From positions 19,324 to 83,323 of the forward strand of contig CAYQLC010000001.1 of NCBI GenBank assembly GCA_964418325.1: DNA of 64,000 nt. The letters run 5' to 3'. Of this stretch, positions 1,417 through 50,794 are shown in pieces (the first letter of the stretch is position 1; every line of letters starts with the position of its first letter). The position numbers and the translations under genes were made by a program. The stretch is from an uncultured Bifidobacterium sp. (GTDB taxonomy: Bacteria; Actinomycetota; Actinomycetes; Nanopelagicales; Nanopelagicaceae). The notes under the pieces were generated by a model. That model had not been told where the DNA came from, did not search any database, and was given only the letters and a program-made list of their open reading frames with translations.

Positions 1417-4400
1417 TTACGGAAGCGGTCCCTCTACTCCGTTGTTCCAACGGTCGTACTCCCCAGCGAGCGCTAGATAGCTACTGCGGTTCTGAGTTGC
1501 CAGAACCGTGTTAACGCGAGTGATGAGGGCATTGACGGTGACCGCTGCAGGGAAGTCAGCGCCGTAATAAGCCTCATTCAAAAGCGCTGCCACTGATGCA
1601 CGGAGCAAAATTTGTGCTGCACCAGTAATGCCAGCTCCTCCCTTGTAGCTAAGTCCAGCCAGCAATGTGTCTTTGACGTTATTTCTATCAAGATCCAAGA
1701 TGCCGCCACTGAGTAAAGAACTAGGCACGCTAAACACATCTTGGATATTCATCGTTGGCGTGTAGCCACTATTCCAATCTTCAGGATGGTTTTTCCAGTA
1801 ACCGGGGCTTCTACCAAACCAATAACTCTTTAGTGTGGCAGTTGCAGTGGCAGTCACTTGATTATTCTCATTATCTTTTGCAATAGCGGTAGCGGTATTG
1901 ACAAACGACACTCCTGGGCCAATCACCATATAGATGTTAGTAACGCATTGGATACTTCCACCAGCTGGGATTGACTGGCCCACTAATGCCAGGCATGTAG
2001 GTGAGAGCGCTATCTTGGGATCAGTAAGTGAAGTTACTTGCACCATCTCTAAACCAGGATTTGAGATTGTGAAAGTGTAATTTACAAAATCACCTGTTGA
2101 TCGAATAAATATCGGATCTACCGTCTTTGTTAGAGAAAGTTGTGGTAGAACATCAGTGAAAGTTACTCGGAACGAATCAGAATCACTCGCACGATTTCCT
2201 TCATTATCTGCCCCTGCCACTGTCACTGTGTTGTCAAATGGATTAAGCGTCCAGTCGCCAAGGAATGTGGTGTAAACGCAGGAGTAAGTGCCTAGGCCAA
2301 TAATGGTCTGGGGTGCTAGACAGGTACCTTTGCCATTGAGATCTCCGAATTTGTCATCCAGAATCGATGATAAGTAGAAAGGCTCCAAGGAATCATTCCT
2401 CACCACAAATGTAAAGGTGACATTCCCACCAGATTCCGGCATAACACTTGGTGATGCTGTCTTCGTCACTGTCACTGAAGGAAGTACATCAACAAATGTC
2501 ACCGTTGCGTCATCGCTGCCCGAGCCTGGATTACCCTCTGGGTCGCGACCAGTGGCAGTCAACAGATTGACATGTGTAACGAGGTCGTCTGAAGCTAGCG
2601 TTTTGATTAGTGTGCAGTTATAAGTCGCTCCAGCCGCAATTGTCTGAGGTACAGCGCATGTCCCTGAACCATTTAAATTCCCATACATGTCATCCACAAG
2701 CGAAGTGAGTGTAAAGGCCTCTGGTGCTTTGTTTTTGATTGAGAATGTAAATGTGACTAGTCCACCTGTCTCAGCAACTGAAGTCGGTGAAGCCGACTTT
2801 GTCACTTCAATATTTGGCAAGAAGTCAACCGTTACATCAGCCGAATCACTATCAGTGACTTGAGTCGCTCCATAGAGCCCTACCACTGATGCCACATTTG
2901 TAAGATTGGCGGTTATCACAGGAGATGAGCAGGTGTAAATCTGTTGTGCACCGGCAGCTAATCCTCCGATTGTTTTATCGCAATCACTAGAGAGCGGATC
3001 TGAAACAACTACGCCTGTCAGAGGAACATTTCCTGTATTACTTACCGTTATAGAGAAAATTGCCTGCTGCCCTTCAATAACTGTTTGGGTTTCCGGACTC
3101 TTTTGGATGCTTACTCTCGGGTCAGCGCCAAAATAGCTGCTAACGTCAATAGCGCTAACTTGAATGGAATTCCAGGTGCCATAGGCAGTACCGGTATTCG
3201 CATAGTTTCCCGCAACTGCACTTCCAGTTCCTGAGCAAGTCATCGATTCAGTAATAGCAAGAGTAGTTTTCGGGCAAACAACTGTGACTCCTTGGTTGTC
3301 TACGACATAAACATTTGAGAGCGCACGATCACCTGTATTGGTAACTTGATAGCTCCAAGTTATAGCTGTTCCCACAAGTAGCGTCGCACCGTCCGTACCG
3401 TTGGTTGTTTTAGCGACGGTGATTGCTGGATTCGGGGCATCAATAGAGATGCTCGCAGTGTCGCTAGCAGAAACCTGCGTACCGGCATTCGATTGGTCAA
3501 ATCCCGAAACCGTGGCGGTATTCACAACGGTGACATCTTGAGTAGCTGCGAATGAGGTGATGTAAGAGCCACTTGCTGAGGCTCCAATGGCTAGATCGTC
3601 TACCTGGCCATCAGTATCAATATCGGTTAAGCCCGAGGCTAAAGCCACCTCAAAGCCAGGGTAATCCCCATTGTCATCAGCGATAGTCGATATGTTGAAA
3701 AGCGGCGCACCAATCGCGCCACCTTGATCACTGTTATTCGTGACAACATAGCAATACTTCACCGATTCATCACTCTCGACAGCGATGTTCTCTTGTCCTG
3801 GGCATGAACCTGTAGATGTGGTAACTGTTTTTGATAGCGCAATCGAAGGCACAACGAGCGCCTCTACATTCTTAAGCGAGACCGTTTCATTGCCGCCATT
3901 AATAGGTGTTGATGAACCACCTGGTGCCAGCGCTAATGTTGCCAAAGCGCCCTCAAGAAATTTCACCTGAAGATTACCTGTGGGTCGAGCTCCAGTTTGG
4001 CAGTGAATCTTCACATTAAATCGGAAAACAACGACTTCACCTGCCTCAACCCCAGTTAAGCGAAAAGTCTTGAGTAGGAGAGCTCCCTTAGTAAACATCG
4101 CCCCCACTTCTGTCGAATTGATTGTCGAAGTGGTGCTATTACCGTTCTCGACATTTGCAGGATCGCTGATGTTTATTCCTACGCTTACTGGGTCACCTAA
4201 CGCAACACCTGATTGACCTGTAGTGTCCATCGTTATCGAAAAATTCATATCCAGCGTCATAAGTCCTAAACTACGGAGCGCCTCAGTGTCTGGAGCTGCA
4301 ACACGCATTAGGTAACTCACTACCTCGTTACAACGGAAGTCTTCACCTTCCAATGTTTCACGGATATCGATATTTCGTCGCCCAGAGTTCCACTGCCCAC

Positions 4401-4557
4401 CCCCGATTGAATGGTCGTAGGTATCAGGATCGGCTGCAGCAAAAGCGAGCGAGATTCCACTCCCTTGAGCGCTAGCGCCACTTATCAAGGCGGTACTTGA
4501 CAGTAGCAAAGAGATAACCACCAACAAACGAATTAATTGATTGAATCTATTTTTCAT
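1417..4557 (-). CDS. Large secreted repeat protein (1046 aa): signal peptide, tandem DUF11-like (conserved repeat domain) Ig-fold modules, distinct C-terminal domain of about 170 aa
   Basis: Signal peptide MKNRFNQLIRLLVVISLLLSSTALISGASAQG; SD GGAGGG 8 nt before ATG 4557. Tandem modules of about 105 aa: ..VTKSASPTSVAETGGLVTFTFSIKNKAPEAFTLTSLVDDMYGNLNGSGTCAVPQTIAAGATYNC.. / ..VTKTASPSVMPESGGNVTFTFVVRNDSLEPFYLSSILDDKFGDLNGKGTCLAPQTIIGLGTYSC.. / ..LTKTVDPIFIRSTGDFVNYTFTISNPGLEMVQVTSLTDP.., with more divergent copies upstream. No LPXTG motif and no C-terminal TM segment. Confidence 0.8.
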   Translation of the reverse strand: MKNRFNQLIRLLVVISLLLSSTALISGASAQGSGISLAFAAADPDTYDHSIGGGQWNSGRRNIDIRETLEGEDFRCNEVVSYLMRVAAPDTEALRSLGLMTLDMNFSITMDTTGQSGVALGDPVSVGINISDPANVENGNSTTSTINSTEVGAMFTKGALLLKTFRLTGVEAGEVVVFRFNVKIHCQTGARPTGNLQVKFLEGALATLALAPGGSSTPINGGNETVSLKNVEALVVPSIALSKTVTTSTGSCPGQENIAVESDESVKYCYVVTNNSDQGGAIGAPLFNISTIADDNGDYPGFEVALASGLTDIDTDGQVDDLAIGASASGSYITSFAATQDVTVVNTATVSGFDQSNAGTQVSASDTASISIDAPNPAITVAKTTNGTDGATLLVGTAITWSYQVTNTGDRALSNVYVVDNQGVTVVCPKTTLAITESMTCSGTGSAVAGNYANTGTAYGTWNSIQVSAIDVSSYFGADPRVSIQKSPETQTVIEGQQAIFSITVSNTGNVPLTGVVVSDPLSSDCDKTIGGLAAGAQQIYTCSSPVITANLTNVASVVGLYGATQVTDSDSADVTVDFLPNIEVTKSASPTSVAETGGLVTFTFSIKNKAPEAFTLTSLVDDMYGNLNGSGTCAVPQTIAAGATYNCTLIKTLASDDLVTHVNLLTATGRDPEGNPGSGSDDATVTFVDVLPSVTVTKTASPSVMPESGGNVTFTFVVRNDSLEPFYLSSILDDKFGDLNGKGTCLAPQTIIGLGTYSCVYTTFLGDWTLNPFDNTVTVAGADNEGNRASDSDSFRVTFTDVLPQLSLTKTVDPIFIRSTGDFVNYTFTISNPGLEMVQVTSLTDPKIALSPTCLALVGQSIPAGGSIQCVTNIYMVIGPGVSFVNTATAIAKDNENNQVTATATATLKSYWFGRSPGYWKNHPEDWNSGYTPTMNIQDVFSVPSSLLSGGILDLDRNNVKDTLLAGLSYKGGAGITGAAQILLRASVAALLNEAYYGADFPAAVTVNALITRVNTVLATQNRSSYLALAGEYDRWNNGVEGPLP

Positions 4558-4727
4558 TAAATAACCCTCCTCAGGTTGTGCTTAAGTATTCACATTCAAT
4601 CTCTGCGTTTACCGCGTTGATTACTCCCAGTTGACTCTCATCACTGTTGGTGGAAAGAAATTCTCGAGAGTTACCCACGAGGCGGACTTGAACAGTCCGT
4701 GACCTTCATTTCTTAGTTTCATTTCCT

Positions 4728-5696
4728 ATGAAAACCTTAAAAATATTGTTCGTAGTCATTTCATTACTCGGATTAAATCCCTTAACAGCAGAAGCAAAGA
4801 CAACTGCCTCAGGTGGGCCTTATGAAAATCTTGCTCTTACTGGACAGGTGGTCAATCTCAAATTATCGGGATACCCCTTAGGCGCAGGTTTCTACATAAT
4901 TCAATGTAAAGGCGTAAATAGCGATGCTCGACCACAAGTGTGTAACAACACTTCTCAGCTTTGGATTTCCAATAGCTTGGGTGCTGATTACCTACCTACA
5001 GCCGATATTCAATTCAAGCCTACGGCTACCTTTATCTATGGCACACAAACAATAAATTGCGTAAATACTGCATGTGGCATTTTTATCCGGCTCGATCACA
5101 AATCGTCAGCTGATCGAAGTGAGGATCAATTTATACCCATAAAATTCGTTGGTAGTACTCTTCCTAATCCCAACGCCGATGTAATTCGTGCTTTCGTCAA
5201 TGGCCGGCAGTTATCAACAATCAACCCGATGAGTGTCCGTAATCAAACTATTTTCAAAATAGATGCGACTTCGCGCTCAGGATCAACGCTGACGTATAGC
5301 ACTGTTTCAACAACATGTTCCCTAACAGGAAACCAAGTAACTATTTTGCAAGGATCGGGATACTGCGAGATTGATATTTCTTCACCTGGTAATTCTCAAT
5401 ACTCTGCGATTACAAATCACTATCTCTTTAAATTGATGCCTGGTATAGCAAACCTATCAATTCCTACAAGAGTCTCTCCTGGCACCTCTCTGGTTTTGCC
5501 TGTGAATACATCATTTGGAGCGAAGATTTCCTATGAAGTGTCCAACACGAAAAATTGCACACTTTCTCAAAGTCAGAATAGTTTCGTCGTCAATTTTACC
5601 AAGGTTGGAGCGTGCACACTTAAAGCAACAGCCCCTGGAGTGACCGATACTTATGCACCCTTGAAGCAGAGTATTAGCTTCAAAATTCGGAGATAG
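4728..5696 (+). CDS. Secreted protein: N-terminal neocarzinostatin-family-like domain plus two Cys-pair Ig-like modules
   Basis: Signal peptide MKTLKILFVVISLLGLNPLTAEA. GQVVNLKLSGYPLGAGFYIIQCKGV..PQVCN..TATFIYGTQTINCVNTACGIFIRLD matches the apo-neocarzinostatin pattern as I recall it (GTVVKVAGAGLQAGTAYDVGQCAWVDTGVLACN..GTVDCTTAACQVGLSD). The C-terminal half has the modules ..TLTYSTVSTTCSLTGNQVTILQGSGYCEIDISSPGNSQY.. and ..ISYEVSNTKNCTLS..VGACTLKATAPG.. Confidence 0.6.
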   Translation: MKTLKILFVVISLLGLNPLTAEAKTTASGGPYENLALTGQVVNLKLSGYPLGAGFYIIQCKGVNSDARPQVCNNTSQLWISNSLGADYLPTADIQFKPTATFIYGTQTINCVNTACGIFIRLDHKSSADRSEDQFIPIKFVGSTLPNPNADVIRAFVNGRQLSTINPMSVRNQTIFKIDATSRSGSTLTYSTVSTTCSLTGNQVTILQGSGYCEIDISSPGNSQYSAITNHYLFKLMPGIANLSIPTRVSPGTSLVLPVNTSFGAKISYEVSNTKNCTLSQSQNSFVVNFTKVGACTLKATAPGVTDTYAPLKQSISFKIRR

Positions 5697-5699
5697 TCG

Positions 5700-7097
5700 A
5701 TGATTTTCGGTGTCATCTCGCTATTGGTTTCAGCCGTAATTCTCGTTTTTGCAGTCATAGGAATCAGAGCGACTGTAAGCAAGCATCCCGATCTTCACGG
5801 GATGCTTGTTATCCGGGACTTCTTTAAGTATTTAGCGTTATTCATAGCTGTATTAATCACTTGCTTCGGACTCTCTGGAATTCTCACTGCAGCCCTTAAT
5901 TATCAGCAGGATCTCTTCGTCTCTAAGCTTGATCTTGCGCGGTGGTTGTCGTTTGCTGTGATTGGAATACCTCTTATAACACTTATTTCAAGATGGATAA
6001 ACCGAGATTTCATATTGAGTGCTCAGGCAAGGGAGTCACCGGTCTGGCATACCTATCTCCTGCTCGCTACGGGCTCTTCACTCATGCTCTGGTTTTTACC
6101 TCTGCAAAATTCACTCCGAACATTTGCTGGAGCGCCATACTCCCCCCGCGCTATTTCATCAACCCTCATCGCTTTTTTCGTTTGGGTTATCCATATCAAT
6201 CTACTGCGAAGTTATAATTCTATAATTGTCAAAGTACAATTCTTTTTTGGTTCATTTATCGGATTTTCCGGTGTAGCTCTCTCTTTGATTTCTTTTATGG
6301 ATTCAGGCATCTCAACGATTATCAATCTTGATATAGGAAAATATCAAATCGCTGAAGCAATTATTCTTCTCATCACATCGCTTCCTTTGGCTTTATTCTA
6401 TTTTGGAGAATCGGCGAGTCGAGCTAGTTCGCTTGAGTTAAGAGTATTTTCCACCTTTGCAGGTTTGGTGGTGACAATTCTTTTCGTTTCAGTGGCTGCC
6501 ACTATTTCTTTAGACACAGTTTTGACTTGGTACTTTGGTGATACCGAGCAAGATTATGAGCGATTCTTCAATGATTTCCCTGGAGCGGTTGGAGCAGTAA
6601 TCGTACTAACAGCCTTTCACTTTATCTTCCGATCGTTAACTGAAGGATTTGAGCGTGACCAACTCGTTCGCATCTACCAGTACCTAGTCTCAGGTGGCAC
6701 GCTTATTGCAGGTAGTGTTGGACTTGGCGCGGTGGTTGTTGGATTTCTTGCCAACGAGAATCGAGTCAATACGATGTTGATGGGCGTTAGCTTGATGGTC
6801 ATAACCCTCACAAATTGGTTTTATCACTGGAGGCTCTGCCTAGGTGCTCTCAAATCTGATCGCATCGGGGAGTCACAATCCCCGGTGCGTCGTGGCTACA
6901 TATATTTTTTCATAGGCGCACCCATGATTTTTGCTATCGGGTCACTGGTATGGCTGCTGTACAACGCCTTCAAGGCCCTACTGATAGGCAACCAAGCCCT
7001 ATGGCAGAGTAGGTTTCCGATTGCCGGCCTGGTAATTCCTTTACTTATGGCCGGTTATCACTTTTGGTCATTGAAACGCGAACGTGCACTCCTATGA
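5700..7097 (+). CDS. Polytopic integral membrane protein (465 aa), unknown family, internally repetitive
   Basis: ATG lies 3 nt after the upstream TAG (..TAG tcg ATG), with GGAG 7 nt upstream. About 12 hydrophobic segments. Recurrent motif before the TM hairpins: IRDFFKYLALF.., VWHTYLLLATG.., VRIYQYLVSGG.., VRRGYIYFFIGA.. Confidence 0.7.
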   Translation: MIFGVISLLVSAVILVFAVIGIRATVSKHPDLHGMLVIRDFFKYLALFIAVLITCFGLSGILTAALNYQQDLFVSKLDLARWLSFAVIGIPLITLISRWINRDFILSAQARESPVWHTYLLLATGSSLMLWFLPLQNSLRTFAGAPYSPRAISSTLIAFFVWVIHINLLRSYNSIIVKVQFFFGSFIGFSGVALSLISFMDSGISTIINLDIGKYQIAEAIILLITSLPLALFYFGESASRASSLELRVFSTFAGLVVTILFVSVAATISLDTVLTWYFGDTEQDYERFFNDFPGAVGAVIVLTAFHFIFRSLTEGFERDQLVRIYQYLVSGGTLIAGSVGLGAVVVGFLANENRVNTMLMGVSLMVITLTNWFYHWRLCLGALKSDRIGESQSPVRRGYIYFFIGAPMIFAIGSLVWLLYNAFKALLIGNQALWQSRFPIAGLVIPLLMAGYHFWSLKRERALL

Positions 7098-7853
7098 AAC
7101 CGCAGCTTCACGCTTTAGCTCATTGAATATCAGTGCCGCTTCTTTTCGACCGTCACAGCGAAGTTTCTCATAGATACGAATGGATTCTTGGCGAATAGTT
7201 GACTCCGAAAAACCAAGTATTTGCGAGATTGCAAGGTTGGTTTTTCCCTCTGCCATAAGCTGCAGAATCTGCGACTGACGTTCGGTTAGTTGCCGGCCTT
7301 CAAAAACTAGTCGGGCTGAATTGAGCAAATGTCGATCCTGCTGAATCTCTCGCGCTCCATTTTTTGACTTGTTGAAAAACACCGAGAAGATGCTGTTGAC
7401 TGCTTTTAGATAAGCTTGTACCTCAGAAGTGCGCTCTACTTCTGATGTACAGAAAATGCTTAACGTCGCTATCGGCGAATGATTTCTTTCGACTGGCCAG
7501 GCTATGAAACTTTGAATTTCTTTCAAAAGATCATCGAAATTATTGATCTCCGCAGGATTATTCCACGTGGGAACCTCATCGACCCATATCAGTGAACGAG
7601 TTTTTACTGCCTTAGCTACTGGATTATTATCATTTAAGGGAATCTCTTCAGGATATAAATCAAAAATATTCTTTCTCAATCCAAATCTGCCAATTAGTTC
7701 CGCAGTACCTACGATGTTAATCGCTGACAAAAATGTACCTACGCACCCCAATGGAGCGAATGTGAAGAGTGTGAGATATTTCAAGGTGTCATCAAGGTCA
7801 TGATCATTCACCCCTAGGTAATCGCTTAAATCTTCGACTAATTCAAGAAACAC
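7092..7853 (-). CDS. LuxR/GerE-family transcriptional regulator with an unrecognised N-terminal domain of about 185 aa
   Basis: The C-terminal sequence LTERQSQILQLMAEGKTNLAISQILGFSESTIRQESIRIYEKLRCDGRKEAA is a LuxR-type HTH. GTG start at 7853 with GGAGAG 5 nt upstream. 6-nt convergent overlap with the membrane protein gene. Confidence 0.75.
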   Translation of the reverse strand: MFLELVEDLSDYLGVNDHDLDDTLKYLTLFTFAPLGCVGTFLSAINIVGTAELIGRFGLRKNIFDLYPEEIPLNDNNPVAKAVKTRSLIWVDEVPTWNNPAEINNFDDLLKEIQSFIAWPVERNHSPIATLSIFCTSEVERTSEVQAYLKAVNSIFSVFFNKSKNGAREIQQDRHLLNSARLVFEGRQLTERQSQILQLMAEGKTNLAISQILGFSESTIRQESIRIYEKLRCDGRKEAALIFNELKREAAVS

Positions 7854-7909
7854 AACAACTCTCCATTCGTTTTTCGTAAATTCATCATAAGGATTTTTTT
7901 CTCACTAAA

Positions 7910-7933
7910 AAGTCAATGACTAGTCATTGACTT
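7910..7933. promoter_or_regulatory. 24-bp perfect palindrome (candidate operator) in the divergent LuxR / Ig-like-protein intergenic region
   Basis: aagtcaatgact|agtcattgactt: each half is the exact reverse complement of the other. The half-site core agtcattg recurs at 7957-7964 inside ttgtc-N13-gacaa (7952-7974). Confidence 0.5.
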
Positions 7934-8054
7934 GTCTTTGATGAACATTCTTTGTCCAGTCATTGCACAGACAATCTCTTTAATAATTCGATGATGAATG
8001 AAAGATTGTCCAAATCACTGGACACGAAAAGAGATGATGATTGTGATAATTTCA

Positions 8055-8684
8055 ATGAAGGCAAAAGCAACCTCAATTGCTTCACTTTCTACAATCGCTC
8101 TTCTTGCCTCTGCTTTTCTGTTCATTTTTACGATACCTAGTACCGCAGAGTTACGACCGGTTTTCGTAACCAGTACGGGCAAATTCACTATTCAGTTGAA
8201 TGAAAGTGTGACGATAGGGCTCTCTGCGGAGGGCAGTGAGCGCGTTACGGCTTATTCAACTGGGACACCGAGCATCTGTTCGGTGTCAGCTGAAGGAGTG
8301 GTAACTGGAGTAAACGGGGGAACCTGTTCGATTCTTGCCTCCATATCTGGCTCGAACAGTTATCCGGATACCACTCCTGCAGTACTTATTCTGGAAGTTT
8401 CAAACCCCGCTCCTGGGGGCACCAAAAAAATGTTGACTGTAGATCGTTTTAATGGTCGTTTCTCTATCAACTTGGATTTTCAACCTGATATGGCCAAAAA
8501 GCGAGTACAGCTACAAATCGGCATAAAGAACTCTTCTGGTCAGATTAATTTCAAGAGCATCTCCACACTCCTCCTCAATGACAAAGGAAGAGGAAGTGTG
8601 CAGAGACAAGCTACTTATGCAAAAGGCATCTACTTTAGGGCGCTCGTAAATAAAAAAATAATTGTTACTAAAAAAGTAGCATAA
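8055..8684 (+). CDS. Secreted Ig-like domain protein
   Basis: MKAKATSIASLSTIALLASAFLFIFTIPSTA/E is a canonical signal peptide when translation starts at ATG 8055 (the longest ORF starts at 7998, so the start is uncertain). It has the same Cys-pair Ig-like module as ORF 4728: ..VTAYSTGTPSICSVSAEGVVTGVNGGTCSILASISGSNSY.. Confidence 0.6.
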   Translation: MKAKATSIASLSTIALLASAFLFIFTIPSTAELRPVFVTSTGKFTIQLNESVTIGLSAEGSERVTAYSTGTPSICSVSAEGVVTGVNGGTCSILASISGSNSYPDTTPAVLILEVSNPAPGGTKKMLTVDRFNGRFSINLDFQPDMAKKRVQLQIGIKNSSGQINFKSISTLLLNDKGRGSVQRQATYAKGIYFRALVNKKIIVTKKVA

Positions 8685-8705
8685 CAAATAGACAATGGAG
8701 AAAAA

Positions 8706-9386
8706 ATGAAGAAAACGGTTCTTGTCGTGGAAAACGACGAGTTAATAGTTAGCGAGATTCATAAGGCGATCCCAAGTGAGGAGTATTCGCTTATCAAGGC
8801 GATGGATGAACAGAGTGCGCTCCGTAATTTTCAACAATTCCAGCCGGACTTAGCCCTTATTGACGCTAATTCGAATGGTATGCGGGTTATGGAAATCTAC
8901 CGAAAGTTCAAGAATCAACGAGACATTCCGGTATTTTTTATTAACGGGCACGCCAATGAACATGATGAATTGAGTGCTTTTGCTTCAGGTGTAGATGATT
9001 ACATCCCTCAGCCACTCTCTCCTGCTGTATTAGTCGCACGAATGAATGCTCTTTTCCGGCGAAGTAATGGAACAGGCCATGAAAAAACTAAATTTATTGT
9101 CGGGCCTTTGGAGTTAGATTCTTACGAACATACTTTCAAAGTAAATGGATCCGAAGTGCCTCTTACAAGAACTGAATTTGAGATAATGCGCGAATTAATT
9201 AGCGCTCCGGAAAAAGCAGTTACCCATGATCAATTGATTAAGAATGTTTGGGGCGAATGGTTCAGTAGTAAACACATGATAGAAAGTCACGTATCAAGAT
9301 TGCGAGCCAAGGTACGGAATGCTGGTGGTCCCAGCGTATGTGAAGCGGTAAGAGGCGTTGGATACCGATTAGGAGTAAAACCGTGA
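8706..9386 (+). CDS. OmpR/PhoB-family response regulator, atypical receiver, no adjacent kinase
   Basis: Receiver plus winged-helix domains (..ESHVSRLRAKV..VRGVGYRLG). Phospho-Asp context PDLALIDANSNG is present. The switch Thr/Ser position reads FFING (canonical LTA) and the conserved Lys reads DDYIPQPLSP (canonical DDY..KPF). SD GGAG lies before the ATG. Confidence 0.8.
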   Translation: MKKTVLVVENDELIVSEIHKAIPSEEYSLIKAMDEQSALRNFQQFQPDLALIDANSNGMRVMEIYRKFKNQRDIPVFFINGHANEHDELSAFASGVDDYIPQPLSPAVLVARMNALFRRSNGTGHEKTKFIVGPLELDSYEHTFKVNGSEVPLTRTEFEIMRELISAPEKAVTHDQLIKNVWGEWFSSKHMIESHVSRLRAKVRNAGGPSVCEAVRGVGYRLGVKP

Positions 9387-9514
9387 GAAAGGTAGACAAC
9401 TACATCTTTAGTGTGAGTTTGTAATGTGTCAGACGAGCACATACTGCAACTTTCCTCTGAAAAGTTTCGCCTACATCGCGCAAGGAGCCGGTGTTTTAGC
9501 GAAGGAGAAAGTTT

Positions 9515-10165
9515 GTGAAGAAAAGAAATACCAGCCATCAGTTACGACTGGCGGCGACCTCAGTTTTTGTGGGATCGGTGATTCTGGTGGCAGGAAATAG
9601 TGTTTTTGCCGGCTTAAATGCCACAGTTTCCGCAAGCCAAGATGACTCGGCAGGGACGTTGAGTCTCTCGATTGCTAACAATGGGACAGGGTTCTCTCAG
9701 TCCATAACGAATTTAGCGCCGGGTGATGTTGTTAATCGCTACGTCACACTCACCAACAGTGGCACCCTGAGCTCTCAATCTTTAGGTTTATCGATAGCTG
9801 CGACAGGTACGTCCACCCTCATTACTGATGGAGTAGCACCAGCAACAAATAAGGCCCTCACAGTAACGGTCTTGTCCTGTACAGGTGGTAACTGGAACAC
9901 TGCCACAGGAGTCTGCTCAGGTACCACTAACACAGAGATTAGTGAGACTCCTTTGAGTGCTTTTTCAGCACAGAAGGTTTTTACGGTTTCTTCCTCTCTG
10001 CCTGCTAGCGGCACATCTAAGTTACAAATTCGCACCAAATTGCCAGACCAAAATGAAACAACAGTGAATGGTGTTTTGCCTTCTGTAACTATCCAGAATG
10101 GGTCAGCTACCTTGTCATATCTCTTTAACCAGGCCCAACTTCCTGGCGCAACTACAAATAGTTAA
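9515..10165 (+). CDS. TasA/camelysin-like secreted protein with SipW-type signal region
   Basis: GTG start with AAGGAG 7 nt upstream. MKKRNTSHQLRLAATSVFVGSVILVAGNSVFAGLNATVSASQDDSAGTLSLSI..SITNLAPGDVVNRYVTLTNSGTLSSQSL matches the TasA N-terminal signature as I recall it (..AAFND..FASGTLDLSA..SVNLSNLKPGDKLTKDFQFENNGSL). Confidence 0.7.
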   Translation: MKKRNTSHQLRLAATSVFVGSVILVAGNSVFAGLNATVSASQDDSAGTLSLSIANNGTGFSQSITNLAPGDVVNRYVTLTNSGTLSSQSLGLSIAATGTSTLITDGVAPATNKALTVTVLSCTGGNWNTATGVCSGTTNTEISETPLSAFSAQKVFTVSSSLPASGTSKLQIRTKLPDQNETTVNGVLPSVTIQNGSATLSYLFNQAQLPGATTNS

Positions 10166-10196
10166 TAACTACTAATAGCAAGAGGGTGAGTAATCA

Positions 10197-10751
10197 ATGA
10201 ATAGATGGCATTCGCTACTTTCATTGATTGCTTCACTCTTGTTATTTCTGACGGTAATTCCTAATGCCCAAGGAAAATTGGAGAGCAATTCAACTTTTGC
10301 CTCAGTAGTTAATACCGGAACTTGGTCGACCACCATTAATTCTTATAATGCTCCTGCAACCAATAACCCGTACAACGTTACATGGACGGGAGCCTCAAAG
10401 AAACAATTTGCTTTAATATCGATAATCAATAGTGGAACTTACGCCATTAGTGCATCTCATATTTCATTCTCTTCCGTTAAAACTAATGGCGATACAAGTA
10501 GCCCACCAACTCTCACTTTTGAGCTATGTTCGGGAATTTGGGATCCAACTACCTTCAATTGTTCTGGGACTATTACATCAATTGGATCAGGAACATCTGG
10601 GACGATTGATGTGATGGCCTTGATAGGGTCGGGAAATAGATTGGTTATTCGAGTCACCAATCAGCGTGATGCTAGCTTTAACTACAACACCACTTTCAAT
10701 TCCCTGACCTACCGTTCCGATATTCGGGTAGGCGTAGTGGCGTCATCATGA
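10197..10751 (+). CDS. Second TasA-like secreted protein (paralogue of 9515-10165)
   Basis: Signal peptide MNRWHSLLSLIASLLLFLTVIPNAQG, then ..STFASVVNTGTWST... It shares ..IINSGTY.. and the only Cys pair, ELCSGIWDPTTFNCSGTITS, with the paralogue (LSCTGGNWNTATGVCSGTTNT). SD GAGGGTGAG upstream. Confidence 0.65.
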   Translation: MNRWHSLLSLIASLLLFLTVIPNAQGKLESNSTFASVVNTGTWSTTINSYNAPATNNPYNVTWTGASKKQFALISIINSGTYAISASHISFSSVKTNGDTSSPPTLTFELCSGIWDPTTFNCSGTITSIGSGTSGTIDVMALIGSGNRLVIRVTNQRDASFNYNTTFNSLTYRSDIRVGVVASS

Positions 10752-11257
10752 AACGTTCATTAATTCTCGCTTTTGACGTTTTTCTGCTCTTATCTGCGAT
10801 TGGTTGCTCGTTTTTATCTTTTCTTGCTATCCACCAAAATATTCAAGTAACTCGCGTCGTTTCGGATTCGATGGCACCGGCAATCCATCGAGGCGACACG
10901 TTGATTTTTCGCTCAGAACCTACAGAGAATATCTCCGAGGGGAAAATCCTTTTACTGCCCCTAGCGGATGGCTCGGGACAATCTTATGTGCACAGGGTCG
11001 TAACAGATATAGAAAATGCAGATTCCTCAGTGACGGTCATAACAAAGGGAGACGCAAATCCGGTGGCTGATAACTGGAAGCTTAAAATCACTAGCCCTTC
11101 AGTTCCAGTCTACGTTGCAACAATTCCAACAAAATTGATTCCATTATTTCAGTTGAATAATTGGACTTTACTTGCTCTCTTTAGTGGGATTATTCTCCTT
11201 CTTATTCGCGTTATCTTTTTCACAAAAACAAATGAGATGTCTGTAGACCATGAGTGA
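10748..11257 (+). CDS. Signal peptidase I, ER/archaeal (SipW-like, S26B) type
   Basis: N-terminal TM segment, Ser box VVSDSMAPAI, His box SYVHRVV, TKGDANPVAD, C-terminal TM segment WTLLALFSGIILLLIRVIFF. ATGA overlap with the upstream gene. Confidence 0.8.
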   Translation: MKRSLILAFDVFLLLSAIGCSFLSFLAIHQNIQVTRVVSDSMAPAIHRGDTLIFRSEPTENISEGKILLLPLADGSGQSYVHRVVTDIENADSSVTVITKGDANPVADNWKLKITSPSVPVYVATIPTKLIPLFQLNNWTLLALFSGIILLLIRVIFFTKTNEMSVDHE

Positions 11258-12122
11258 AGTTTCGAAGCAAGATAACGGACTCAATCAACTTTTTGTCGAA
11301 GCACTGACATCCATCCTCCACGACTACCAAATTGTGCGTGCCATTCGCTCTTTCACCAACGAAATAGTGGACTACGAGAATCTATTTGATTCGAACTCAA
11401 CTAGAAAAAACCACGAGCCAAATGAACTTTCAGACTTTCGACTTCTTTACACAATAAAGAAAGTACTTGGATCAAACTATCACAATGAATGGGTTAGCTT
11501 GCAGGATAAAATGATATTTCCACTCTCTCGCGATGAAGTTCTTGTAGTTCCCTTTGATGGGCATCGACATCAACCTCTGCCTGAGCAAATTTCGATGATT
11601 CTTGGATTTGATGGCGTCGGTCATCTAGTCTCTGAATCAGTCTCACTTCGATTGATAAATAGGGCTCTTGAGAATCTTGCCAATCATCATCAGCCATTTG
11701 CTTTTGGCGTCATTAATATAGATAACTACCAAGCGCTCGTGACAAACTATGATCAACTGGGGCAATTAGACATCTTCGATAGAATCTTCGAAGAAATCCA
11801 AGAAAAGTTGGGTCTAAATGATGTTGTGGCTCCGCTCAGCGATAATGAATTCGCCACAATTCTTTTTTGTGAAGAAGATATCAACGAGGTATTTCCCAGA
11901 CTATGGGAACTTTCATCGTTGTCGAACACTCCATTGTCGTTAGGAGAAGTACAGATACCTATTCCATTTTCAGCTGGATACGTTCTGGTAACGGATGCAT
12001 GCACTACTGCAAAAGCGATTCTTGGTGAGGCAATCTCAATGATGTATAAAAGCAAGAGCAATGGAAAAAATGGCTACCATCTATCCAACTCTTACCACTC
12101 TGCTAGCGATCCATCCTTATAG
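11250..12122 (+). CDS. Cytoplasmic protein with degenerate GGDEF domain (SDNEF in place of GGDEF)
   Basis: FAFGVINIDNYQALVTNYDQLGQLDIFDRIFEEIQEKL..VVAPLSDNEFATILF..IPFSAGYVLV..AKAILGEAISMMYKSKSNGKNGY follows the GGDEF-domain layout (DiDhFK..N..G..GD..L..RlGGDEFail..SiG.a..ADeAmYraK..Grn), but the GG residues are lost and there is no RxxD I-site. 8-nt overlap with the signal peptidase gene. Confidence 0.7.
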   Translation: MSEVSKQDNGLNQLFVEALTSILHDYQIVRAIRSFTNEIVDYENLFDSNSTRKNHEPNELSDFRLLYTIKKVLGSNYHNEWVSLQDKMIFPLSRDEVLVVPFDGHRHQPLPEQISMILGFDGVGHLVSESVSLRLINRALENLANHHQPFAFGVINIDNYQALVTNYDQLGQLDIFDRIFEEIQEKLGLNDVVAPLSDNEFATILFCEEDINEVFPRLWELSSLSNTPLSLGEVQIPIPFSAGYVLVTDACTTAKAILGEAISMMYKSKSNGKNGYHLSNSYHSASDPSL

Positions 12123-13276
12123 GTCCACTCCGGCGCCCGCCAGGGTGTGGCGTTATTTCCAACGGACTTCACCGCTTTTTCATCGATTTCGATACCTAGA
12201 CCTGGTTTCTTCATCAATTCAACGTAACCATCTTTCACGTTGTAATCACCATAATCGACAAACTTGTACCTGTTGTCTGCTGTTCCAGGATTACCTAGTC
12301 CAAGGACTTGCTCTTGAATGAGGAAGTTTGGCGTCGCGAAATCCAATTGAAGGCTTGCGGCAAGATTAATCGGACCAAGCGGGCTGTGCGGTGCCATAAA
12401 AACATTGTATGTTTCGGCCATCGCTGCGATTCGACGAAGCTCAGAGATGCCACCTGCGTGGCTGATATCAGGTTGTGCAACTGCTAGTCCTGTTTGCAGT
12501 ACATCTTGAAAATCATTACGTAAAAATAGCCGCTCCCCAGTTGCAATTGGAATGGGTGTTGATTCAACTATTAGTTGGAAATGTTTTGTGTATTCAGGCA
12601 AGACTGGCTCTTCGACAAAGAGCAAATTATAAGGCTCCAAAAGTGGCAATAACTTCCTTGCCATCGCCAAACTAAACCGGCCATGAAAATCTAGACAGAG
12701 ATCTCGTTCGTTACCTATGTGTTCACGAACTGCTTCGACTCGGGCAACGATCTTATGAACTTCGTGTGGAGTATCTATAGGCTCAACTGCATCAGCAGGA
12801 CAAAATTTAAACGCGGTCAAACCGCGATCCATTTGAATTTGAGCACTCTCTTTCAATTCTTCTATCTCTTGTTTTAGTGAAATCTGCGTTTGAGCCTCGT
12901 GTGGCGTCTTGCCACCAATATGCCCATAGATTCGAACTCGATCTCGGACAGCGCCACCGAGAAGGGTGTACACAGGAACATTCAGGGTCTTTCCAAGAAT
13001 GTCCCACAGCGCTTGATCGATTCCTGAAATAGCAGAGAAAACTATTGCTCCCCCTCGATAGAAACCGCCCTTAAGCATGCGTTGCCAATGTCGCTCGATT
13101 TGAAGCGGATCTTTTCCAAGTAAATATTCCATCAATTCATCAACGCATCTTGCTGTTGTATCGGTCTTGCCCTCAAGCACAGGTTCGCCCCAGCCGACAA
13201 TTCCCTCGTCGGTCTCGATCTTCAAAAACAATTCACGAGGTGGAGCCGGGAACAGCTGATAGCCAGTAATTTTCAT
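12092..13276 (-). CDS. dgoD: D-galactonate dehydratase (enolase superfamily)
   Basis: [62 protein letters not shown].. ..[16 protein letters not shown] is nearly collinear with E. coli DgoD as I recall it ([48 protein letters not shown]). Confidence 0.85.
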   Translation of the reverse strand: [394 protein letters not shown]

Positions 13277-41412: not shown

Positions 41413-41483
41413 GCGGGCGTAGTGAAATGGCATCACAAGAGCTTCCCAAGCTTTTAGCGCGGGTTCGATTCCCGTCGCCCGCT
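41413..41483 (+). tRNA. tRNA-Gly (anticodon CCC)
   Basis: Folded by hand. Acceptor GCGGGCG/CGCCCGC, D-stem GTGA/TCAC, anticodon stem AGAGC/GCTTT, loop TTCCCAA, T-stem GCGGG/CCCGT with T-loop TTCGATT, discriminator T, no encoded CCA. Confidence 0.9.
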
Positions 41484-41487
41484 CTCT

Positions 41488-44400
41488 CTAGCGGGTATAT
41501 ATCTGAACCCGACGATTCTTTGGATTCTGATATTTATCTTTCTTCAATGGCGAACTATTACCCCGACCTACAGCCGAGAATTTTACCTTCGGCAGAAGTT
41601 TCTTCATCGCATCGGCCACTTGAGTTGCTCGCTTGGTAGATAGCGCCGAAGTCTTGACTAGTGGTGCATTCTTAAACTGATCAGAGTGGCCGGTGATTTG
41701 AACCTCACTGAAGCCCGATACGAGGACAAATGCAGCCATTTCACGAATCTTCTTTGTGTAGGTCTTAGCTATGTTCGATGAGAATCCATCGAAGTAAATT
41801 CGTCCTACCAGACGGAACTTAGCAGCAGGTATGTATCTACCAATGACTCTATCTACAGTGGTAGTTCCTGAATTATTCAAAGCTTCAATTGCAAGATTAC
41901 TGTTCCCGCCGTAAAGCCCCTTGACGGTACACGTAGTGTCACTAGTTTCACAGAGCACTTTGCCACGAACCACTACTCGGTACTTTTCAGCCTTCTCTCC
42001 AGGCAACAACGTCCAAGCAATAATTGTGTCGTTTGCACCGCTTGCGAAGGCATACGTACCTTCTTGGAAAATACCTTTATATGTCCAATTGAAGATTGAT
42101 ACTGCTGATTCAAGGTTCTTAGCGCCAATTGCTACTACTGAGATCTTGTAGGTCCGCCCCTTAGAAACATCAATCTTCAGATTCTTGTCAGTCGTTGTGA
42201 AAATCAGTGGTTCGCCTACATTTGGAGTCACTGTCACCCGGAACTTCTCGGCATAACTTGGTTGCTCCCACGTCATCGCGACGAGATTGACCCCGGATTG
42301 ACTGGCAACAAGTGCTACCGGAGCTAGGGGAGGTAATGCGTAGGCGATTGTTTGCTGAGAGTCAACTTTCTTCGAGGCAACGGGAATTGCGCTGATTGAG
42401 TAAGCCAGACCGGGTTTGAAGGTATTAAGTAGCTCGCCACTATCTACCTTGTCACTCTCAACTTCAAATTTCTCATTGAGTGACGAGATGATGACGATTT
42501 TCACTGGCTTTGTGGTGCCTTCCCAGCGAATTCGAAGGCCCGTTGCTTCATCAGTTCCCCACAATCTCGTGAGCACATCCTCAGGGTCCTCGATTACAAC
42601 GGGCGTTGGCGCTGGTGCAGGGGCTCCTCCACCGCCACCTCCACCTCCACCTCCACTTGGCGCTGGAGCCGGTGCTGGACCAGTAATTGTCAAAGTGGCC
42701 GTAACTGGTTCTGCCGCCTCATATGCGCTATTTCCAGATTGCGATGCAGTAATGACGGTAGTTCCTGCGGTAAGAATGACAACCAAACCTTCGACGATAT
42801 TTGCCACAGCCGTATTACTCGAGGTGTATGTAATTGGTAGATTCGATGACGCCGTGGCACCAGGAGCGAATGGGGTATCTGTCGTCAATTTCGTGAGAGT
42901 GGTGAGCATGGTGATGGTCTGTGCCAAACCGGGAGCAGTCGTAAAGAGCAAATTCGCCGGTCCACTATAACCACCGAATGGCAACCCTGATGAATCAATA
43001 ATTGCACCAGGATCAATCTCTAGATAGTAGATCGTATTGGTTGCGAAATCACCGTCAAAATTAATTGTGATGGTATCGCTGCCAAAACCGGTTACTTGTG
43101 AATCGGTAACAGAAAGTTGGTGTACAAGCTCTCCACCAAATTTACGAAGAGTAATTGCACCTATTTGTGAATTGACGACTTCGCTGAAAGTAAGCGAGAT
43201 GTTTGCACTCACTACAACATTTACAGAGCCATCAGCGGGAATCTTGTTTATGACTGTTGGAGCGGTGCGATCGATAGTAACTGTGCTTGCCCGGAAGGGA
43301 ACACCGGGCGTCGTCACATTGGTGGAATGCAATACGCTATTGGCACTCAATTCAAGAATCAGCGTACCCTCGCTGCAGTTTGTTACATAGACCTTAATCG
43401 GAGCACCGGTGGTGAGATATGAACTGCTCTGCGGAGTGAATACACAGCCGATTGCGCTGCCTTGATTATTAAAATCGCCAGGCTCTATTCCTGTTATGTT
43501 TCTACTAAAACTGACATCAAACATGATTGGTTGATCGGCCGCGTAAGTTGTGAGAACAAACGGCGCAATCATCGTCACGATTGTTCCTGCTGTATCGACC
43601 TTTAGAACCGCCGACGAGAGCGATCCACCAGTCGTCGTATTACCAGCGGTATCTGAAGGTGCGCCACTGAATGTCCAGTAATAGCAATACCCTGTAGTCA
43701 GCGTGGTGGCAGCATTCTTCGTTTGGGTTCCTTGAGCTGAAAACGCGCCACAACTATCCCCTGTTAACGTAGCCCGCATCAAAGTCACCGTGCCACTTGA
43801 AGCAAGGGAGACTGAATCAACAACGCTCCAATCGGGTGTGATGGAGGTTGAAGTGGTGAAACCACCCGTGGTAGGTGAGATCCATGTGATCACCGGTGCG
43901 GCGCGATCGATAGTCACGGCAGATGATGTGGAGTTAGCCACCGTTCCTAGATTGCTGGCAGCATCCGACACCGAATTCAACTTCAACCGGAGCGTGAGTA
44001 TTCCATCAGAACATCCTGTCACCGAAAGCGTTATCACAGTTCCGGTATCTGAACTTGGCGTGAAAATACAACCGACTGCTTTAGCAGAAGTGGTGTTTGC
44101 ATTGACAAAATCGCTGAAGGTCAATCCTGAGATACTTTCGCTAAATGTCAATGTATAAGAGAGCGGAAGTGAAGTTGCAGTGGCACCTGGTGCAGTCCAG
44201 ATTAATGTGGGTGCAGTGCGATCAATCGTTATGGAACCGCTTGTAACGGCTGAAAGTGGTCCTCTGTTTGTGGATGCATCTACCACGCTATTGGGAGCCA
44301 GGCGCAAAATCAAAGTTCCTTCAGCACAATTAGTCACAGTGACATTGAAGGATGACCCGGCACTCGCCGAAGGAGTGAATAAGCACCCAGTTGCGGTTCC

Positions 44401-50649: not shown

Positions 50650-50794
50650 TTTTTGGGCCTCCACGCCACCCCCCAGGAAGTCTGCGCTACCTGAAGGCTC
50701 GTCCTAAGAAATCACGACAATTGTGCCAGTTGATTAGCCAGATTCAAGAATGGTTCGGAACTGCTCTAGGGAAAGCCCCACGATCCACAAGGGA

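Follow-up and report, generated by a model that had tools for sequence, protein, structure and literature searches.

The biofilms of Bacillus have TasA fibres as their main protein scaffold, and homologues of the fibre subunit have recently been shown to build pili and matrices in archaea. Here we describe a gene cluster of this general kind in a 64,000-nucleotide stretch of DNA (the window, throughout) that comes from an uncultured actinobacterium deposited as a Bifidobacterium sp. and placed by GTDB in the Nanopelagicaceae. Three open reading frames (ORFs) follow one another on the forward strand, exactly where an initial annotation made from the letters of the window had put them: 9515–10165 (216 aa), 10197–10751 (184 aa; ORF2 in what follows) and 10748–11257 (169 aa), after which comes a fourth, 11250–12122 (290 aa). 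The first encodes a TasA-like protein, the second a diverged paralogue of it and the third a signal peptidase, and we think on balance that together they represent an actinobacterial TasA-type secreted-fibre module with three co-transcribed core genes.

The junctions between these genes are tight, and all of them read as first described. A Shine–Dalgarno-like AAGGAG (9502–9507, +) can be read directly from the sequence 7 nt before the GTG start codon at 9515; the spacer between 10165 and the ATG at 10197 is 31 nt long and holds GAGGGTGA; ORF2 and the peptidase gene share an ATGA overlap (10748–10751); and the peptidase gene in turn overlaps the fourth ORF, a GGDEF-like gene, by 8 nt (11250–11257). 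The 4-nt and 8-nt overlaps, taken together with the ribosome-binding site, argue for coupling of the genes, and the reading of 9515–11257 as one operon holds, both on the overlapping start and stop codons and on the conserved linkage described below.

The first gene (9515–10165, +) encodes a secreted protein of the TasA family, which is our proposed major fibre subunit. Pfam model PF12389 (Peptidase_M73) matches it with an E-value of 4.5e-8 and 33.6 bits (gathering score 22.5), over residues 22–209 and profile positions 17–192 of 196, and it also matches nearly all of the 120 homologues listed from the 568 found in a large protein collection. A direct phmmer search of the protein against the sequences in the PDB returned only insignificant matches to TasA (E ~0.8), so that a homologue profile was needed; built from 28 homologues, this profile finds TasA (8aur/5of1) at E-values of 1.5e-5 to 1.9e-5, in an alignment that covers the GTLxLS...NLxPGD...NxGSL blocks on which the likeness to TasA had initially been based and, in addition, a C-terminal block. 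The motif quoted at that time, GTLSLS...NLAPGDVVNRYVTLTNSGTL, is indeed present in the sequence. The AlphaFold2 model has a mean predicted local distance difference test (pLDDT) score of 68.7, with a core at 80–95, and its top Foldseek match in the PDB is the fibre form of TasA (8aur_A; E 2.8e-7, probability 1.00, TM-score 0.51), which is the sole match below 1e-3, with monomeric TasA (5of1/5of2) also among the matches. Membership of the TasA/camelysin family is thus confirmed by profile, by profile-to-PDB sequence comparison and by predicted fold, and the suggested resemblance to TasA is borne out at levels well above chance; judged by its sequence, the protein is a member of the family and not an orthologue of B. 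subtilis TasA.

The name of this family invites a quite different reading, in which the protein would be a secreted metalloprotease of the camelysin type (MEROPS M73) and not a structural protein at all; after all, Pfam speaks of a Peptidase_M73/camelysin metallo-endopeptidase, and some of the homologues are annotated as ‘M73 family metallopeptidase’. We find this hardly credible, given that the mature part holds no His, that no His position is conserved among the 28 aligned homologues, that neither HExxH nor any other metal-binding motif occurs in the invariant columns, and that TasA itself is treated as an inactivated camelysin-like protein (PMC9245690). This lack of His excludes a zinc protease, whatever the family is called. 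What the same 28 homologues do share is exactly two Cys residues in the mature part, Cys122 and Cys134 in our protein (9878–9916, +), which form the invariant motif C-x-G-x-W-x(5-6)-C-S-G that recurs in ORF2; from the sequence, this pair probably forms a stabilising extracytoplasmic disulfide. The TasA-like family also has an invariant LPDQxETT block, and both paralogue families end in a conserved C-terminus of the type ...(Q/V)R-x-A-T-T-T-N-S; neither of these is a sortase signal.

Hydropathy analysis gives one N-terminal hydrophobic segment in the TasA-like protein and one in ORF2. In the former, a predicted Sec signal peptide takes up residues 1–32 (9515–9610, +), with a charged n-region, hydrophobic residues 12–35 and predicted cleavage at VFA|GLNAT. 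G27 and A32 are invariant among the homologues, and VFA|GLNAT aligns with ...TWA|AFND of B. subtilis TasA, the mature N-terminus of which lies at residue 28 (PMC9674648); on this comparison cleavage would occur at about A32|G33. Immediately after it comes a putative donor strand, residues 33–46, GLNATVSASQDDSA (9611–9652, +), the counterpart of TasA residues 28–38/40. The stretch from the predicted cleavage site to the GTLxLS block has the length and position of the TasA donor strand, and L34, N35, A36 and T37 are 86–100% conserved among the 28 homologues. The donor strand of TasA consists of residues 28–38, among which N30 forms hydrogen bonds between subunits (PMC9674648, PMC10151520), and strand beta0 is reported to be conserved mainly at its beginning (PMC10151520), which the high conservation from L34 to T37 fits. 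It is on account of the equal segment length, the conserved L34-N35-A36-T37 and the TasA precedent that we draw the analogy, and residues 33–46 may by this reasoning act as a donor strand.

The second gene (10197–10751, +) encodes a protein of 184 aa with a signal peptide (predicted cleavage AQG|KLES), which has no match in Pfam or NCBIfam, and PF12389 also fails to match any of 28 members of the second-position family to which it belongs (0/28); a word-indexed search returned only four close relatives. In a first hhalign comparison, ORF2 and these close relatives (5 sequences) aligned with the TasA-like profile at a probability of 84% over 31 columns, with the Cys-pair motif as seed (the Cys residues, C111 and C122, are invariant in the ORF2 family). 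The ORF2 profile was then rebuilt by collecting the genes that follow the TasA-like gene in 57 loci and aligning 28 diverse ones among them, and this 28-protein second-position profile matches the TasA-like profile with a probability of 97.6% and an E-value of 4e-12 over 147 columns, which take in the signal peptide, the NxG(T/S) strand and the Cys pair. Iterated profiles converge on the same set of ORFs, and an exhaustive search brings the ORF2 family to 79 representative clusters, nearly all of 170–215 aa. On the strength of the hhalign result, the shared Cys-pair motif, the C-terminal ...TNS tail and the profile convergence, we regard ORF2 at the level of sequence as a cryptic TasA-superfamily paralogue that lies outside PF12389 and is related at the superfamily level only, and we propose it as a minor subunit. 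The initial annotation had taken it for a second substrate of the peptidase, but the hhalign comparison makes it more than a mere substrate. Likewise, its supposed similarity to TasA survives at the superfamily level by hhalign, but not in PF12389, which does not match, nor in the AlphaFold2 fold matches, which are not significant.

The third gene (10748–11257, +) encodes a signal peptidase I of the ER (endoplasmic reticulum)/archaeal, SipW-like type, 169 aa in length and apparently dedicated to its neighbours. NCBIfam model TIGR02228 matches at an E-value of 2.8e-15 and 56.5 bits (cut-off 51.85), whereas the LepB-type model TIGR02227 gives 21.7 bits and stays below its threshold of 47. Of the sequences in the PDB, those of human SEC11C and SEC11A match best (E 5e-7 to 2e-6), through SxSMxP, VHRV and TKGDxN, and alignment with SEC11A/C puts the catalytic residues at Ser41 in SxSMxP (10868–10870, +), His82 in VHRV (10991–10993) and Asp102 and Asp108 in TKGDxNxxxD (11051–11053 and 11069–11071). 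All four are kept almost without exception among the peptidases linked to TasA-like genes (S41 in 80/81, H82 in 81/81, D102 in 80/81, D or E at 108 in 81/81). There is no Lys general base, and because a His stands at the position of the LepB lysine, the enzyme is not of the Ser/Lys LepB type. The motifs SDSMAP, YVHRVV and TKGDANPVAD that had been picked out at the start are all present, as are the N- and C-terminal transmembrane (TM) segments, which hydropathy places at residues 3–30 and 135–162, and the original classification as an ER/archaeal Ser/His enzyme distinct from LepB is upheld by the models passed and failed and by the SEC11A/C alignment. Going by its sequence, we would describe it as resembling SipW in type and in genetic context without being a SipW equivalog.

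How widespread is this arrangement? A scan of species-representative genomes gave 115 relatives, from which 80 loci were kept, and an ORF-level survey with HMMER alignments covered 83 loci; in what follows, T stands for the TasA-like gene, O for the second-position paralogue and S for the signal peptidase, and L-numbers denote related loci. The kept loci are essentially all from Actinomycetota, and they span Nanopelagicaceae, Planktophila, Lentzea, Amycolatopsis, Actinosynnema, Arthrobacter, Tessaracoccus and Frankiaceae as well as metagenome-assembled genomes (MAGs) of Mycobacteriales and Acidimicrobiales, the closest relative among them being a Candidatus Nanopelagicaceae MAG (83% identity); a freshwater bacterium related to Nanopelagicaceae is therefore the most likely source of the window. 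A peptidase homologue is present in 75 of the 83 TasA-like loci, rising to 81 ORFs after profile iteration, and in most of the 83 a second TasA-type gene, of the ORF2 family, follows the first. Two gene orders occur, T-O-S in most lineages and S-T-O in Arthrobacter and several freshwater MAGs, and another freshwater lineage (L081–L083) carries the same trio in unrelated surroundings. Since the trio recurs across loci and in unrelated genomic context, the conserved unit is, as far as sequence can tell, one of three genes. The five-gene order envisaged by the initial annotation does co-occur in the immediate subclade of the window (L084 and L086), but beyond it the conserved unit is that of the three genes, and the closest species-representative genome is without the GGDEF-like gene. 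In L071 (Actinomycetes MAG ELA622), an expanded locus at ~3300–12200 holds four tandem TasA-like ORFs, one ORF of the second-position type and at least five SipW-like peptidase ORFs. L006, a MAG labelled Acidobacteria (REEB489), has a T-O-S trio whose TasA-like protein is 55% identical to that of the window. Of the 80 loci it alone bears a label from outside the Actinomycetota, and this points to mis-binning or horizontal transfer.

This linkage bears directly on the question of whether 10748–11257 has anything to do with its neighbours, or is simply a general signal peptidase, be it the housekeeping enzyme or a second one, that happens to lie there while a LepB-type enzyme encoded elsewhere processes the TasA-like proteins. 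Such a division of labour has something of a precedent in AbpA, the TasA homologue of the Thermoproteales, which has no peptidase gene of its own in the vicinity and is apparently processed by the generic enzyme (PMC9245690), and the predicted cleavage sites, read directly from the sequences, follow the ordinary -3/-1 small-residue rule. Against this must be set the consistent adjacency of an ER-type homologue to the TasA-like genes in 75–81 of the 83 loci, across many families and in two gene orders, the start and stop codon overlaps on both sides of the peptidase gene, and the movement of the trio as a unit between unrelated genomic contexts. With linkage statistics such as these, incidental adjacency is unlikely, and we consider a general peptidase improbable.

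Upstream of the trio lie two genes that we view as candidate regulators of the module, and the earlier impression that it has regulators of its own amid housekeeping genes holds, by Pfam and by synteny of both. Directly upstream is an OmpR/PhoB-type response regulator (8706–9386, +; Pfam Response_reg and Trans_reg_C) with a non-canonical receiver: at the equivalents of PhoB D10, T83 and K105, the window has N, N and Q, and the closest genome (L001, gene at 5192–5872) has H, N and Q. In the response regulators of a sister freshwater clade T and K are kept and a His replaces the phospho-acceptor Asp, whereas in soil actinomycetes (Lentzea and related genera) the response regulator gene lies downstream of the module instead and its receiver is canonical. 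We saw no histidine kinase gene between 4.7 and 13 kb of the window, which, together with the non-canonical receivers, suggests on sequence grounds that the upstream proteins are phosphorylation-independent regulators. Divergent from this gene is one for a LuxR/GerE-family helix–turn–helix regulator (7092–7853, -; Pfam GerE, 47.4 bits), and the arrangement LuxR(-)/response regulator(+)/T/O/S is kept in the freshwater loci L001, L012, L013, L026, L027, L032 and L045.

The fourth ORF (11250–12122, +) encodes a cytoplasmic protein with a degenerate GGDEF domain (Pfam GGDEF, 37.9 bits; gathering score 23.8), preceded by an N-terminal part of ~120 aa with no assigned domain. The GGDEF motif reads SDNEF in the window and [SDNG]-[DET]-N-[EFD]-[FC] in 12/12 aligned homologues, its position being placed by eye against the canonical RxGGEEF context and not from a printed profile alignment; going by these residues, the protein is probably non-catalytic as a diguanylate cyclase. 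Homologues of the gene number only 13. In L084 and L086 it likewise follows the peptidase gene and overlaps it by 8 nt. The 83 surveyed loci lack it, as does the closest genome, L001, in which dgoD comes directly after the peptidase gene. Membership of the conserved module was rejected on those two absences, and we propose instead a subclade-specific accessory or regulatory gene that is translationally coupled to the peptidase gene. The 3' ends of the GGDEF-like gene and dgoD overlap convergently by 31 nt (12092–12122), and just 3' of this last plus-strand gene a consensus scan marks a terminator-like GC-rich hairpin with a T-run (12133–12152, +), a weak match of a kind found no more often than in shuffled sequence.

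The module sits in an island of ~4.7–12.1 kb with a G+C content of 0.40–0.46, slightly below that of the flanks and lowest, at 0.40, in the GGDEF-like gene. The island is bounded on one side by a DUF11/DUF7507 surface protein gene and on the other by dgoD, a DUF8083-family gene (named through its counterparts in L084 and L086, the copy in the window having no Pfam match), purM and purF. The surface protein encoded immediately upstream (1417–4557, -) is 1046 aa long and carries DUF7507 (x4) and DUF11 repeats, so that the genes for several surface or secreted proteins lie close together at 1.4–12 kb of the window. Within the island, 4728–5696 (+) encodes a secreted protein of 322 aa whose similarity to the enediyne chromoprotein fold is sub-threshold (23 vs 86 bits), and after it 5700–7097 (+) encodes a DUF5671 multi-pass membrane protein of 465 aa; L001 and L084 also have both genes alongside the island, other clades do not, and neither protein is TasA-related. 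The secreted proteins 7998–8684 and 4728–5696 were considered as extra TasA-type subunits and ruled out at an hhalign probability of <1%, and a reading of the module as anti-phage defence was rejected when PADLOC gave no matches among its proteins. Farther along the window, a giant ORF of 3058 aa (41488–50664, -) encodes what is, given a small genome, a very large surface protein; it combines an FG-GAP repeat with five Big_5 Ig-like domains and has an OmpA-like (peptidoglycan-binding) domain at its C-terminus. The sole RNA gene in the 64 kb is tRNA-Gly(CCC) at 41413–41484, with no other Rfam family reaching its gathering score.

It is instructive to hold the module against the systems that have been studied. 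The closest in architecture is sipW-calY1(tasA)-bc_1280-calY2 of B. cereus, and the closest in mechanism is tapA-sipW-tasA of B. subtilis. Like the window, B. cereus has a SipW-type peptidase and two TasA/camelysin paralogues and is without TapA, the initiator role of which has been proposed for one of the two camelysins (PMC10151520). Its gene order is matched by the S-T-O loci of Arthrobacter and several freshwater MAGs, while the window has T-O-S. It differs in that the second paralogue of the window type is not detected by PF12389 in any of the 28 members, and in that the three-gene core showed no bc_1280/CapP-like gene, although no search was aimed at one. Moreover, the window proteins are shorter (184 and 158 aa when mature), His-free, and endowed with the invariant Cys pair and ...TTNS C-terminus, and their candidate regulators are an atypical OmpR-type response regulator and a LuxR protein in place of SinR/SinI-type control. 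With B. subtilis the window has in common a TasA-family jelly-roll subunit, a second, presumably co-processed secreted protein and the arrangement in a single operon; in both, the dedicated signal peptidase is an ER-type Ser/His enzyme with one TM segment near each end, and TasA donor strand 28–38 is equivalent to the mature N-terminal segment of the window protein. Here the accessory protein is a TasA paralogue and not a V-set immunoglobulin protein such as TapA, and identity to B. subtilis TasA is ~17% over the structural alignment.

Outside the Bacillota, jelly-roll subunits joined by donor-strand complementation also build the archaeal filaments, namely the Pyrobaculum AbpA bundling pili, Pyrodictium AbpX and haloarchaeal Tafi, and the genes for AbpX, TafE and TasA are often co-localised with one for a TIGR02228-type signal peptidase I (PMC9245690; 10.64898/2026.01.04.697558). 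These filaments belong to separate clusters of the superfamily, and the sequences from Actinomycetota group with TasA of the Bacillota (10.64898/2026.01.04.697558). AbpA has no dedicated peptidase, and the signal peptidase associated with AbpX has ten TM helices against two in the window enzyme (10.64898/2026.01.04.697558). As for the peptidase itself, SEC11A/C are its best matches of solved structure, and their catalytic Ser, His and Asp boxes align with its own; SEC11, however, acts in a multi-subunit ER complex, whereas the window enzyme is a stand-alone protein with two TM segments that is encoded beside its presumed substrates.

If we put these comparisons together, the module might work as follows. 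Both TasA-type proteins would leave the cell through Sec, and the membrane-embedded peptidase, its Ser41/His82/Asp102 active site facing outwards, would cut them at about A32|G33 and G26|K27. The freed N-terminus of the major subunit (GLNAT...) could then complete the jelly-roll of the following subunit as its donor beta-strand, and the product would be a non-covalent fibre as in B. subtilis TasA, with the invariant Cys pair probably adding a stabilising disulfide. The paralogue may enter sub-stoichiometrically, as an initiator, tip or cell-proximal (anchor) subunit, a role for which B. subtilis offers a model, since the N-terminus of TapA resembles the TasA donor strand and initiates assembly, and SipW processes both proteins (PMC9674648, PMC10151520). 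Control of expression probably lies with the neighbouring OmpR-type regulator, atypical as to phosphorylation, and with the divergent LuxR protein, and in the subclade of the window the catalytically dead GGDEF protein may also contribute to control.

The product need not be a linear fibre. The pair might be secreted and processed and yet be monomeric, or form a lattice-type coat, a matrix or an adhesin pair in place of linear donor-strand fibres, perhaps as a heterodimeric surface protein or as a calcium-dependent network of the kind known from archaeal AbpX. Some members of the TasA superfamily do form para-crystalline networks or tubes (AbpX preprint, 10.64898/2026.01.04.697558; cannulae paper), monomeric TasA is stable and soluble (PMC9674648), and the host lineage is planktonic, streamlined and freshwater, with a recent cultivation study mentioning neither pili nor biofilm; one might even speculate that the invariant acidic/amide residues of the LPDQxETT block form a metal site. 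The best structural match, by contrast, is the fibre form of TasA, and the N-terminal segment and the C-terminal tail, both of them inter-subunit elements in TasA fibres, are conserved, the C-terminal residues of TasA being known to form an inter-subunit interface (PMC9674648). In addition, the characterised relatives that have a dedicated signal peptidase I all polymerise by donor-strand complementation. We therefore rate a coat, lattice or monomeric pair as rather unlikely, though as a contender to be taken seriously.

Several other observations weigh against a TasA-type fibre module, and they deserve to be set out together. Both equivalog models of the B. subtilis system score far below their cut-offs: NF046066 (TasA) gives the first protein 18.7 bits against a cut-off of 450 (E 9e-4, over the N-terminal 88 profile positions), and NF046067 (SipW) gives the peptidase 23.8 bits against 190. 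Nor does either substrate have a match of the TIGR04088/TIGR04089 type (SipW-cognate or alternate signal peptide) at E <= 1 in NCBIfam, a negative that must be read with the fact that very short models can be dropped by the HMMER filters and that their presence in the library copy is unconfirmed. ORF2 is poorly modelled by AlphaFold2 (pLDDT 54.7), and its fold matches, to TNF-like and CBM35 jelly-rolls, archaeal thread 7pnb and AbpA 7ueg, all have E > 6e-3 and were not used as evidence; what is more, its family conserves the N-terminus poorly, and this makes a donor role like that of TapA less likely. Conservation just after the cleavage site of the TasA-like protein could reflect recognition by the peptidase rather than a donor strand. 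A promoter scan found no sigma-70-like promoter upstream of 9515, a result that is uninformative for an actinobacterium with divergent promoters, and the literature searched yielded no fibre, processing or expression data for any actinobacterial member.

None of this makes the family new to Actinomycetota, because the literature and the names given by NCBI already record TasA homologues there: PF12389 is widespread in Actinobacteriota (Wang et al. 2022, PMC9245690), and at NCBI some of the homologues there already go by ‘TasA family protein’ (Lentzea), while others are annotated as ‘M73 family metallopeptidase’. In the literature we found no paper that characterises an actinobacterial TasA member and none that links TasA to Nanopelagicales, so that the view of such loci in the initial annotation, as known from annotation only, stands as regards a characterised member, but it overrated the novelty, given that the NCBI names and PMC9245690 came before. 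What we add is modest, namely the recognition of the second-position paralogue family, the definition of the three-gene core with its two gene orders across Actinomycetota, and the atypical regulators of the freshwater clade. That the host should be a planktonic, streamlined acI-type bacterium is mildly surprising. We would go further only tentatively, and with more doubt than conviction, to the idea that the ultra-small, supposedly free-living Nanopelagicales build TasA-type fibres from a self-contained system of two subunits, in which the second, from an undescribed branch of the superfamily that is invisible to Pfam and present in most of the actinobacterial loci surveyed, replaces TapA as initiator or anchor, and whose production is switched by phosphorylation-independent regulators (the response regulator, the LuxR protein and the dead GGDEF protein).

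The practical value of the locus is that it represents a minimal, well-delimited actinobacterial version of the system and so marks out the genes to be cloned for an initial test by biochemistry or cryo-electron microscopy, and the second-position family, which current models miss, would be a useful addition to family databases. If the fibres are real in acI-type bacteria, they would imply that a lineage considered purely planktonic attaches, under some conditions, to other cells or to particles, and the accepted picture of these abundant lake bacteria as wholly free-living would have to be revised in part.

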